A DNA stretch of 64,000 nt from Escherichia coli (GTDB taxonomy: Bacteria; Pseudomonadota; Gammaproteobacteria; Enterobacterales; Enterobacteriaceae), in NCBI RefSeq assembly GCF_001677475.2, contig NZ_CP015229.1; one strand, written 5' to 3'. The notes beneath the pieces are model-generated. The model saw nothing but the letters and a program-made list of their open reading frames with translations, had not been told where the DNA came from and searched no databases. The position numbers were made by a program, and so were the translations under genes. Numbering within the stretch: position 1 is the first letter of the stretch; each line of letters starts with the position of its first letter. Positions 25,033-30,233 of this stretch are shown piece by piece.

Positions 25033-25050
25033 TGAATCGCCACGGATAAT

Positions 25051-25863
25051 CTAGACACTTCCGAGCCGTTGATAATACTGGTTTTCATATTCTGTCGGTG
25101 ACATCTGATCGCTGGAACCATGCCGACGCTTACTGTTATAAAACATTTCGATGTAATCAAAAATATCGCTGCGGGCTTCTTCCCGCGTTCCGTAGATCTT
25201 TTTCTTTATCCGTTCGCGTTTCAACAACTGGAAAAAGCTTTCTGCAACCGCATTATCATGGCAGTTACCGCGACGGCTCATGCTGCCCTCCAGGCCGTGT
25301 GATTTCAGGAACGACTGCCACTCATGGCTTGTGTACTGACTGCCCTGATCCGAATGAACCAGCACCTGTTTTTGGGGATTACGGCGCCATACAGCCATCA
25401 GCAGTGCGTTCAGGACAATGTCCTTTGTCATCCGGGATTGCATGGACCAGCCGATAATTTTGCGTGAGAACAGATCAACAACCACGGCAAGATACAGCCA
25501 GCCTTCGTGGGTCCTGATGTAGGTTATGTCCGTTACCCAACGCTTATCCGGAGCATCCGGATTGAACTGTCGCTGGAGCCTGTTGGGCGACACGATACTG
25601 GCCTCGCCTTTACGTGCCCGCGGGCTCCGGTATCCGACCTGAGCCTTTATCCCGACACGTTTCATCAGTCGCCAGACTCTGTTCACTCCGCACTGTTGCC
25701 CGCTGTCCCGCAGATCCAGATGGATTTTGCGATAACCATAGACGCATCCCGATTCCAGCCAGAACTGTTTAATCTGCCCTGTCAGCCTCAGGTCTGCCTG
25801 ATGGCGTTGTGAATGCGGCTGCTGAAGCCAGGCGTAAAAACCACTGGGATGAACATCCAGCAC
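25051..25863 (-). CDS. IS3-family transposase OrfB (DDE catalytic domain; expressed as OrfAB fusion)
   Basis: ORF with DDE integrase-core motifs (KRWVTDITYIRT, LVHSDQGSQYTS, CHDNAVAESFF). Confidence 0.85.
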   Translation of the reverse strand: MLDVHPSGFYAWLQQPHSQRHQADLRLTGQIKQFWLESGCVYGYRKIHLDLRDSGQQCGVNRVWRLMKRVGIKAQVGYRSPRARKGEASIVSPNRLQRQFNPDAPDKRWVTDITYIRTHEGWLYLAVVVDLFSRKIIGWSMQSRMTKDIVLNALLMAVWRRNPQKQVLVHSDQGSQYTSHEWQSFLKSHGLEGSMSRRGNCHDNAVAESFFQLLKRERIKKKIYGTREEARSDIFDYIEMFYNSKRRHGSSDQMSPTEYENQYYQRLGSV

Positions 25864-25919
25864 CCGACAGAGCAGGCGAACAGGCCAGCAACAGGTGTTG
25901 TCACGGATAAAGGCGTACC

Positions 25920-26204
25920 TCAGTCGGACAGCTTTGCGAAGTACGCCGCGGCTTTTTTTAATATGTCCCGTTCGTCGGTAACCCGCTTCAGCTCTTTCTG
26001 GAGACGGCGGATCTCGGCCTGAGCATCTGACTGTTCTTTATTAGCGGAAGAATCCGGACCGTACTTCTTTATCCAGGCGTAAAGGCTGTGGGTGGTGATA
26101 TCGAGACGTGTTGCAACGCTGGCAACAGAATAACCGCGATCAACAACCTGTTTGACTGCTTCAATTTTAAACTCTTCGGGATAACGCTTACCGCTCATGG
26201 GCAC
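25920..26204 (-). CDS. IS3-family transposase OrfA (HTH)
   Basis: 94 aa ORF with HTH and leucine-zipper-like C-terminus ending at the frameshift site. Confidence 0.85.
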   Translation of the reverse strand: MPMSGKRYPEEFKIEAVKQVVDRGYSVASVATRLDITTHSLYAWIKKYGPDSSANKEQSDAQAEIRRLQKELKRVTDERDILKKAAAYFAKLSD

Positions 26205-26427
26205 CTCTCTTTAAGCCATCTTAAATGACTCTGAGGTGTCTGTTAAACCCGTGGCGATTCAAAGATCGTCCAAGAGCGCACCAAATAACAGATGGTTATA
26301 GTCGTCGAAAACATCAGTCGCCTAAGTTCACCTTAGAACTAGTGCTGTTTTGTGTCCCACCCATGCCCCACTGCCCCTTCTTTTCCTTCCTGCCCTATAC
26401 TTTCAGTCTGACTGACTGGAGGCTTCT

Positions 26428-27018
26428 ATGTGTGGACGTTTTGCACAAGCCCAAACCCGTGAAGAATACCTGGCATACCTGGCCGATGAGGCTGATCGCG
26501 ATATCGCATACGACCCGGAGCCTATTGGCCGGTACAACGTGGCGCCCGGTACCAAAGTTCTGCTCCTGAACGAACGCGACGAGCAGCTGCACCTCGATCC
26601 GGTTCTGTGGTCGTACGCGCCCGGGTGGTGGGATAAGCAGCCGCTGATTAACGCGCGCGTCGAGACGGCGGCCACTAGCCGCATGTTCAAACCTCTCTGG
26701 CAGCATGGCCGGGCGATCTGTTTTGCAGATGGGTGGTTCGAATGGAAGAAGGAAGGCGAAAAGAAACAGCCCTACTTCATTATCAACCCGGTCACTGGTA
26801 AGCCGGTCTCGGGTAATAACAAAGGCAGTATGTTGCTCATCTGGCGACCATTCCCGCGGGCAAACTGCCACTTCGCAACAGTGGAGAGGGATGAGTTGAT
26901 GACATTCGGAGCGAAACTTCTCGCCCGGTGGGAGGCCGCATATGGATTAAAGTACACCTCTGGTAATCCATGTATAATTAGATACCAGAGGAGCTTTGAA
27001 CCAAAAAAATATTATTAA
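26428..27018 (+). pseudogene. truncated divergent second copy of SRAP/yedK (only N-terminal ~115 codons are YedK-like)
   Basis: MCGRFAQAQTREEYLAYLADEADRDIAYDPEPIGRYNVAPGTKVLLL... parallels yedK to KKQPYF, then unrelated sequence; nucleotide level clearly diverged from yedK; upstream leader also yedK-like. Confidence 0.7.
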
Positions 27019-27812
27019 TTTCTATGTCTATAGGAGCCTCCAAGTCTAAATCCAAAAGTATATCTTTTAATATTATCAAACAAAAAAGCCTGCTCGTTAT
27101 TAAATATATTCAATTGAGACAGCTTTTCCATGAATGTTTTTGTCTCATCCATAAACTTCTCTGCAAATGAAGGATGTTTTAGCGCTTCAAAGAGTGTTGC
27201 GGAAAAATTTGTTTTTGCAAACATAGAGGCGCTTTGTAATTTATTTTGCCACTTAACTAAATAGTCATCACCTTCATTGTTTAATATTTCTTGGCTTGGC
27301 AGAACCAGTGCTGTTCCATGTGCTATAGCGTTCCGAAGGTGGAACATAGCAGTGAACGCATTTTTATCGGACATCATATCTTCAACCTTCAAGCCAGTAT
27401 AATCTTTAATCGCCTTTTTAAGATTATCCCAGCTCCCATTTGCTTCTAACTCTATATGCAAATTGAAAATCTTGTTATACGATCGAAAAATAGTTCTTGC
27501 GTTTTCTTTATTTGGTTCCGTTGCTGCAAGTTCCCCCATTGCATGGTGATCTTTCGATACAGCAGCGGTGAAAACCTGCCTCAAAATACCTTCAACAATC
27601 GCAGCATTCAGACTTATTAACGTGAGATTTCTGAATATGTTCTCATCTTTTAAAACTATTGTTTCTTTTGGGTTGCCATAGCGATCAAGTTGATCATAAT
27701 CCTTGTCTATTGCACCATTTTTAATCTTAATCGCAATTTCTTCGTATTGCTGAAGTAAATAAACATTAGTATTAAATATGTTAAATGAAGTTATCCTCGG
27801 AACAATTTCCAT
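27015..27812 (-). CDS. hypothetical protein with Rx4H (HEPN-type) motif; candidate abortive-infection/toxin-like RNase
   Basis: AT-rich ORF; internal ATG at 27812 (MEIVPR...) has a GAGGGG RBS, the ORF-track start at 27833 does not; motif FHLRNAIAHG fits the HEPN R-x4-6-H signature; no other domain recognised. Confidence 0.55.
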   Translation of the reverse strand: MEIVPRITSFNIFNTNVYLLQQYEEIAIKIKNGAIDKDYDQLDRYGNPKETIVLKDENIFRNLTLISLNAAIVEGILRQVFTAAVSKDHHAMGELAATEPNKENARTIFRSYNKIFNLHIELEANGSWDNLKKAIKDYTGLKVEDMMSDKNAFTAMFHLRNAIAHGTALVLPSQEILNNEGDDYLVKWQNKLQSASMFAKTNFSATLFEALKHPSFAEKFMDETKTFMEKLSQLNIFNNEQAFLFDNIKRYTFGFRLGGSYRHRN

Positions 27813-28015
27813 TGTCACACCCCTCGATTTCATTAAATCCTGATATGAGAAGCTATGGTATCAACAAATGTGAAAAAATCTAGTTAGAACCCAGAAAAAT
27901 GCTTAATAGGCCATTTAAGCAACGTCTTAATACTTATCGAATACTTGGAGATGTAGCAGAACCCCGGAGGTATTAAGCGGAGAATTCTACGCGCTATGCG
28001 TGCGACATGAGGAGG

Positions 28016-28931: not shown

Positions 28932-30233
28932 ATGGCTAAATCAGCATACCCAACAGGCGTTGAGAACCACGGAGGAACTCTCCGCATATGGTTCATCTAT
29001 AAAGGCAGCCGGGTTCGTGAAAGTCTCGGCGTGCCGGATACACCAAAAAACAGAAAGATCGCTGGCGAGCTACGCGCGTCGGTGTGCTTTTCGATTAAGA
29101 CCGGTAACTTCAATTATGCGGCCCAGTTTCCGGACTCACCTAATCTGAAAAGATTTGGCGTGGAGAGTAAGGAAATAACCGTGCTGGAACTAGCGAACAA
29201 GTGGCTTGAACTGAAGCGTATGGAGATCAGCACCAACGCGATGTCACGCTATGCATCTATAGCGCGCAACATGGTGCCCAGGATTGGTGGGGACAGGCTG
29301 GTATCTGCGGTAACGCAGGAAGATCTGCTGTTTATCAGGAAGGAATTGCTGACCGGTTATCACACGCTGAAAGTCGGGCAGAAAACGCCGGTTAAGGGCC
29401 GCTCAGTCAGAACGGTCAACAACTACATGAAGACCATGGGCGGGATGTTTAAGTTTGCCGCTGATAGCGGTTATGTACGGGTGAATCCGTTCACCGGGAT
29501 CGCCATGCTTAAGCGGTCACGATGCGAGTCTGACCCGCTGACGCGCGATGAGTTTGTCAGGTTGATTAACGCCTGCGCCCACCAGCAACTGAAAAACATG
29601 TGGTCTCTTGCCGTCTACACCGGCGTGCGCCACGGAGAACTTGTGTCGCTGGCCTGGGAAGATATCGACATGAAAGCGGGTACGATGATGATCCGCCGGA
29701 ACCACACGTTAACGAAGGAATTCACCCTTCCGAAAACAGAGGCCGGGACTGACCGTATCATCAACCTCATTCAGCCAGCGATCGACGTGCTGAAGAGCCA
29801 GGCCGAATTAACACGCCTGGGTAAGCAGTATCAGGTTGAGGTGAAACTGCGCGAGTATGGCCGAACCGATGTGCATCCGTGCACGTTCGTGTTCAACCCG
29901 CAGATCGCTTCGCGTAACAGCCGTGCCGGGCATCATTACGCAGTGGGGTCGATCAACCAGTCATGGGAGGCAGCAATGCGGCGCGCCGGGATTCGCTATC
30001 GCAGAGCATACCAGTCCCGACACACGTATGCATGCTGGTCGTTGGCTGCCGGTGCCAACCCGAACTTCATCGCGAAGCAAATGGGCCACACCGACGCGCA
30101 AATGGTTTACCGGGTGTACGGATCCTGGATGGCTGAAAATAACCAGGACCAGGTACTCATCCTCAACCAGAAATTGAGTGAGTTTGCCCCATCCATGCCC
30201 CACGCCGTGGGAACGGATGGTTATTATTTATAA
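28932..30233 (+). CDS. site-specific tyrosine recombinase (phage-type integrase), intact
   Basis: 433 aa ORF with AGGAGG RBS; C-terminal catalytic region (RHTYACW..., GHTDAQMVYRVYG). Confidence 0.9.
   Translation: MAKSAYPTGVENHGGTLRIWFIYKGSRVRESLGVPDTPKNRKIAGELRASVCFSIKTGNFNYAAQFPDSPNLKRFGVESKEITVLELANKWLELKRMEISTNAMSRYASIARNMVPRIGGDRLVSAVTQEDLLFIRKELLTGYHTLKVGQKTPVKGRSVRTVNNYMKTMGGMFKFAADSGYVRVNPFTGIAMLKRSRCESDPLTRDEFVRLINACAHQQLKNMWSLAVYTGVRHGELVSLAWEDIDMKAGTMMIRRNHTLTKEFTLPKTEAGTDRIINLIQPAIDVLKSQAELTRLGKQYQVEVKLREYGRTDVHPCTFVFNPQIASRNSRAGHHYAVGSINQSWEAAMRRAGIRYRRAYQSRHTYACWSLAAGANPNFIAKQMGHTDAQMVYRVYGSWMAENNQDQVLILNQKLSEFAPSMPHAVGTDGYYL
30165..30205. repeat. 41-bp direct repeat, right copy (within integrase 3' end)
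   Basis: Identical to 24904..24944. Confidence 0.85.

Follow-up and report, generated by a model that had tools for sequence, protein, structure and literature searches.

The 1229-bp element described here is, with high confidence, a complete copy of the insertion sequence (IS) ISEhe3 or of a very close isoform, placed by a simple and recent insertion event and most likely still able to transpose. The element itself is already known, and the copy studied here is an ordinary, intact one at a new, strain-specific, intergenic position. It lies in the fliC-amyA-yedK-fliE region of an E. coli-type chromosome; within the window (the whole stretch of DNA that we analyzed, 64,000 nucleotides), the fliC-amyA segment was at best 98.2% identical to E. 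coli, over 6 kb. Features of the element and its surroundings are listed in Table 1.

Table 1. Features of the insertion sequence and of the DNA on either side of it (positions in the window)
Feature	Position	Strand	Details
Complete insertion sequence, ISEhe3-type (IS3 family)	25033..26261	-	1229 bp, read from the sequence
IRL, upstream of orfA	26224..26261	-	Outer 13 bp (26249-26261) repeated without mismatch at the other end
IRR, downstream of orfB	25033..25070	-	Outer 13 bp perfect (25033-25045)
Target-site duplication copy 1, AAG	25030..25032	.	Single AAG in the empty site
Target-site duplication copy 2, AAG	26262..26264	.	Single AAG in the empty site
orfA, HTH_Tnp_1 DNA-binding protein	25920..26198	-	92 aa; Pfam PF01527, E = 4.4e-20
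orfB frame, -1 relative to orfA	25051..25959	-	HTH_21, rve and rve_2 domains
Slippery site A AAA AAA G (A7G)	25952..25959	-	Putative programmed -1 frameshift; element positions 303-310
Predicted hairpin, 10-11 bp	25912..25947	-	From folding; starts 5 nt after the slippery site, includes the orfA stop codon
D224 codon	25528-25530	-	OrfAB numbering
D284 codon	25348-25350	-	OrfAB numbering
E320 codon	25240-25242	-	OrfAB numbering
yedK, intact chromosomal SRAP gene	22113-22781		Left of the IS
yedL (GNAT)			Left of the IS
DUF5503/LRR gene, EspR3 type	23513-24631	-	Uninterrupted 372-aa ORF
Copy of integrase gene 3' end	24818-24958		141 nt; 79% identical to 30079-30219
19-bp core, three direct copies	24924-24942; 26353-26371 (89% identical); 30185-30203		TGCCCCATCCATGCCCCAC
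Chimeric SRAP'-Dam' ORF	26428-27018	+	Residues 1-120 SRAP (profile 1-123 of 214); residues 117-163 C-terminus of phage Dam methyltransferase
HEPN-like ORF	27015-27833	-	272 aa; weak matches: Pfam HEPN_RiboL-PSP, E = 7e-4; PADLOC RTasHEPN, E = 3.8e-8 over 47 residues

All 1229 bp were 100% identical, over the full length, to copies in at least eight E. coli records, where they occupy unrelated loci on chromosomes and one plasmid. ISEhe3 was first described on pPATH of Pantoea agglomerans / Erwinia herbicola (AF327445), and plasmid pT5282-Ct2 (MF344574) carries copies assigned to ISEhe3 by ISfinder. The exact 92-aa OrfA, found on 552 contigs, is named 'ISEhe3 transposase A' in UniRef. The same combination of 92-aa OrfA and 1228-1229-bp element bears the name ISEhe3 in annotations of Shigella genomes, where it is given for the 92-aa OrfA (PMC4924310), and of phage SfIV, whose copy is annotated 'ISEhe3 orfA/orfB' (PMC3851460). 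Quoted ISfinder data describe ISEhe3 as a member of the IS3 family, IS51 group, with TG ends and 3-4-bp repeats, a description that the TG...CA ends, two open reading frames and 3-bp repeats of the present element fit (PMC10425158). Compared via annotated copies, the element showed no demonstrable difference from ISEhe3, a name borne by at least two lineages that diverge by about 10%. ISfinder treats elements as the same at no less than 95% amino-acid or 90% nucleotide identity to the reference (AF327445); the SfIV copy, 89.5% identical to our element, sits near this isoform boundary, and the present element could formally be a sister element. The name ISEhe3 is well supported but not proven, resting as it does on public annotation. 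A full-text literature search returned no text pairing a length of 1229 bp with the IS3 family.

The element is distributed widely among enterobacteria. A copy covering at least 80% of its length was present in 178 of the 5,426 complete E. coli genomes, and related copies were found in 2,739 plasmid records from Escherichia, Klebsiella, Enterobacter, Citrobacter, Salmonella, Raoultella, Pantoea and others, as well as in a few phages. About 40 species representatives of the Enterobacterales also contain such copies, at 64 loci altogether. The copy on a Pantoea vagans plasmid was 97.3% identical to the element.

The first-pass annotation of this DNA had proposed an element of the IS3 family whose orfA and orfB are both intact, together with perfect 13-bp terminal inverted repeats, an AAG target duplication and an intact slippery heptamer near the end of orfA, and each of these points was borne out at the coordinates it gave. 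The element begins with TGAATCGCCACGG at 25033 and ends with CCGTGGCGATTCA at 26261. Its terminal inverted repeats are perfect over 13 bp, with TG...CA ends, and a repeat finder extended them to 38 nt at 74% complementarity; the two ends were the only mismatch-free sites of the terminal 13-mer in the 64-kb window. Both the length and the ends are typical of the IS3 family, whose members measure about 1.2-1.55 kb and have imperfect terminal inverted repeats. IRL carries a promoter-like TTAACA-17-TAAGAT (26246..26218), which is a match to the consensus only.

The likely start of orfA is the ATG at 26198 (element position 64), just before which stands AGAGAGGTG. A program-made list of open reading frames had orfA begin instead at the GTG at 26204, giving 94 aa (25920..26204); an exact look-up of this longer form gave no match, unlike the 92-aa form. 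The same list gave orfB as a 270-aa frame at 25051..25863, and no stop interrupts the orfB frame between the slippery site and 25051, where it terminates; this frame is in the -1 phase with respect to orfA. A slip of one base back at the heptamer would fuse the two frames conceptually into a 382-aa OrfAB that holds zero internal stops. This fused protein matched the NCBIfam profile NF033516, 'IS3 family transposase', over positions 1-369 of 369 (437.7 bits against a cut-off of 160), and the match passes unbroken through the frameshift junction. We regard this continuity as the best available computational support for the proposed recoding. The RNase-H-fold integrase core expected in an IS3-family OrfB is represented by the rve match (PF00665), which had a Pfam E-value of 1.4e-33.

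Catalytic residues were assigned by aligning OrfB with InsF of K-12 IS3 and InsK of IS150. The two aspartates (in VTDITY and HSDQG) and the glutamate (in AVAESFF) are invariant among the three proteins, as is K327, seven residues after the glutamate, and 35 residues separate D284 from E320, the DD(35)E spacing. A sequence search of solved structures returned a weak similarity of OrfA to the HTH protein 2jn6 and no match for the transposase core, so the DDE assignment rests on the IS3 and IS150 alignment. Mutations disrupting the DDE residues or the frameshift window, which had been named as what would speak against an intact element, were absent on inspection: D224, D284, E320 and the A7G run are all intact.

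The A7G run is the sole long run of A in the element and falls at codons 80-82 of the 92 codons of orfA. In the zero frame the sequence there reads TTA.AAA.AAA.GCC, which makes the heptamer A AAA AAA. This slippery site was conserved in 25 of 29 full-length copies, and PGAP annotates identical copies as 'IS3 family transposase, programmed frameshift'. The predicted hairpin downstream of it is a presumed stimulator of frameshifting, to judge from its position, its conservation and the analogy with IS911 and IS3: among 19 sequence variants drawn from copies 88-100% identical, its arms were almost invariant while nearby positions vary. The same 19 variants contained no compensatory change in the hairpin, and the fold of a 105-nt segment was not better than that of shuffled sequences (z = -0.94). 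Five copies from other species (L020, L043, L062, L068 and L082) have an A7G run that is one base short; such a run would put orfA and orfB into a single frame and make OrfAB constitutive, or the missing base could be an error from sequencing through a homopolymer.

The architecture of the element is shared with the IS3-family prototypes IS3 (insE/insF) and IS150 (insJ/insK), in which orfA likewise lies in phase 0 and orfB in phase -1, and which also have TG...CA ends, a DD(35)E-K signature, a slippery site rich in A close to where orfA ends, and duplication of 3 bp of target, the length usual in the IS3 and IS51 groups. OrfB is 42% identical to IS3 InsF and 37% identical to IS150 InsK. At the DNA level the alignment with IS3A is only weak: the printed mean column identity of 74% includes gap columns, and the true identity, judged by invariant columns, is near one half. 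The present element is also shorter than IS3A as annotated in K-12 (1229 versus 1255 bp), and at the aligned position of its A7G run IS3 has CCAAAAGG. The best-studied mechanism in the family is that of IS911, which has a -1 frameshift of the A AAA AAG type with a downstream structure, and regulation by OrfA and OrfAB; transposition proceeds by copy-out-paste-in via a circle, whose abutted ends make a strong junction promoter. In the zero frame the heptamer of our element is A AAA AAA, followed by G, versus A AAA AAG in IS911, and all the sequence prerequisites of the IS911 mechanism are present.

By analogy with these studied relatives, we infer that the element would work as follows. orfA would give rise to a small HTH regulator, and the OrfAB transposase would arise when ribosomes undergo a programmed -1 shift at A AAA AAA G, probably aided by the hairpin that begins 5 nt downstream. 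The transposase's DD(35)E core, formed by D224, D284 and E320, would then carry out copy-out-paste-in transposition through a circular intermediate, and insertion would duplicate 3 bp of the target. The present insertion was a simple event in non-coding DNA, in which AAG was duplicated and nothing was deleted or rearranged. The insertion point follows a decayed integrase fragment by approximately 10 bp and precedes a prophage SRAP gene by 166 bp.

The target site before insertion can be seen in other strains. The empty site, ...CGACAAAGATCG..., is uninterrupted in 11 complete E. coli genomes, namely strain 63-2, which reads ...CATAATCGACAAAGATCGTCCAAG..., and 10 others. A match by chance alone between two 3-bp flanks has a probability of 1/64, and the 3-bp target duplication at the present site is genuine because the uninterrupted site in these 11 genomes carries a single AAG. 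After removal of the IS and one AAG, zero differences from 63-2 remained over alignment columns 99-318, which span about 185 bp on the left side of the insertion point and 34 bp on its right side, and a 184-bp reconstructed empty site was found full-length in 11 complete E. coli genomes at 91-98.4% identity. Once the IS and one AAG are taken out, positions 23506 to 26781 of the window run collinear with the IS-free strain E. coli 30EVA1, over more than 1.5 kb on the left side of the IS and 520 bp on its right side; collinearity with 63-2 extends as far as the att core near 26370. Because the flanks align continuously with 30EVA1 and 63-2 once the IS is removed, the IS sits within undisturbed sequence, and the intact target duplication implies a simple insertion without later IS-mediated deletion or inversion. 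No gene was disrupted and nothing was rearranged by the present copy.

The orfB end of the IS faces the LRR effector gene, which is intact, EspR3-like and on the same strand, and which starts at 24631, about 400 bp away. Among counterparts of this DUF5503/LRR gene, which belongs to the EspR3-type family of T3SS effectors, those of E. coli 63-2 and 30EVA1 bear a frameshift annotation, and the same type of IS splits the gene in O55:H7 DEC5B and truncates it in strain G4/9. A terminator-like hairpin (24992-25010, plus strand), ATGCTCATCACATGAGCAT with a T-run after it, stops 22 bp short of the insertion point; the IS landed immediately beyond this terminator, which belongs to the decayed integrase fragment. 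The IS itself is located between two tandem att cores. A third core lies inside the 3' end of an intact integrase gene (28932-30233), and the arrangement looks like a set of tandem att sites left by serial integration at a hotspot between the EspR3-like gene and fliE.

One could imagine that this position gives the insertion a regulatory or stabilizing role. Read-out transcription, or a hybrid promoter formed at IRR, could alter the expression of the effector-like gene, and a 1.2-kb insertion between att copies could change the att pair usable by the resident integrase. The orientation and placement described above leave room for both effects, but we consider either of them very improbable. 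The reading that we prefer is that of an ordinary intergenic copy with little significance beyond annotation.

The first-pass annotation had placed the element, correctly, between the remnant of att and integrase sequence and the truncated SRAP gene, and had gone on to suggest that it may have helped to reshape the island. On such a view the IS would have mediated a deletion that truncated SRAP or shrank the prophage, or would have recombined with another copy. The region is clearly decayed: it contains the tandem att cores, the integrase fragment, the SRAP'-Dam' fusion ORF and a prophage stump of 3.9 kb, which occupies the interval between the second and third cores and holds the SRAP/Dam ORF, the HEPN-like ORF, small ORFs and the integrase gene. 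Elsewhere, some copies of the IS lack target duplications and adjoin truncated genes. In strain G4/9 the IS connects shiA with a truncated LRR gene, and in strain 2018-05-2CC it connects ygeH with arsH, joints indicating that the element is capable of driving such events. Against a role for the present copy, however, its 3-bp duplication is intact, both flanks are contiguous in IS-free genomes, and the 64-kb window contains no second copy or fragment of the IS. Homology of the chimeric ORF to the full-length SRAP gene of 30EVA1 stops at 26781, so the deletion junction that truncates SRAP lies 520 bp from the end of the IS; in 30EVA1 the same position holds the full-length SRAP gene, followed by the gtr genes of a larger prophage. 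Apparently, an internal deletion in the prophage fused the SRAP and Dam genes. The one remaining breakpoint, where homology to 63-2 ends, coincides with the att core at 26353-26371 and points to site-specific recombination rather than to IS activity. The reshaping suggestion has no support at the present position, and we judge it very improbable; the decay of the neighboring prophage should not be ascribed to the present IS. The 272-aa HEPN-like ORF in the stump could be a stand-alone defence or abortive-infection gene that was kept during prophage decay.

Returning to the simple insertion, its age and the state of the element can be judged from how the copy and its site are distributed. The left junction of the element at its present site was found in 0 of 5,426 complete E. 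coli genomes and, by exact search, was absent from 100,044 species-representative genomes. Since no genome shares the junction, the duplication is perfect, copies elsewhere are identical, and the coding sequence and signals are intact, the insertion is taken to be evolutionarily recent and the copy to be probably competent for transposition. The earlier view of a recent and probably still active insertion thus agrees with the 100% identical copies elsewhere, the empty sites, the unoccupied position in all 5,426 genomes, and the intact DDE residues and frameshift window.

Alternatively, the copy could be an inactive relic that looks intact and hides a subtle defect in an end, the frameshift signal or the transposase. 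Activity of the present copy is read from its sequence, and some related copies are visibly dead: several have indels in the A-run, and in the phage SfIV copy (L010), presumably dead, the slippery site is destroyed and replaced by GAATCTA-C. Yet all motifs are intact in the present copy, and its full 1229 bp are identical to copies at several sites, each with its own 3-bp duplication, which implies that this exact sequence has transposed repeatedly. A hidden defect is very improbable, and we retain the reading of a transposition-competent element.

The element is 1229 bp long, has TG...CA ends and makes 3-bp duplications. Perfect 3-bp direct repeats flank 10 of the 29 other full-length copies with readable flanks, where about 0.45 would be expected by chance; a perfect repeat is absent from the remaining 19, as is usual for ISs after recombination. 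The 3-bp rule rests on these 10 cases and the present copy. Although a 1228-bp, IS407-group-like element with a 4-bp duplication (AAAG, plus strand) is formally compatible with the present site and with four other copies (L004, L007, L028 and L031), at all of which the base after the right-hand repeat is T in the coding orientation, we rejected this reading outright: the flanks of six of the 10 perfect-repeat copies permit only 3 bp (AAG/AAGc, TTA/TTAc, GGA/GGAa, TAT/TATg, GGG/GGGg and CTG/CTGa), and the terminal TG...CA bases are both kept in all 25 full-length matches listed, in unrelated contexts, and in 28 of the 29 compared copies, the 28 being those without an indel.

With its filled site, empty site and 3-bp duplication, this locus provides a documented example of a recent ISEhe3 insertion that fixes the boundaries of the element and the length of its duplication. 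Given its absence from all 5,426 complete E. coli genomes, the insertion could be used as a marker specific to its strain. E. coli Res13-Sevr-PER07-33 was considered as a possible carrier of an insertion at the same site and was rejected, as the flanks differ. In that strain (L004; NZ_CP062811.1, 1227265-1228693) an identical IS lies beside a SRAP-family pseudogene at a different insertion point, with the duplication CCG, and the resemblance may be a coincidence or may reflect a common prophage type that attracts the IS.
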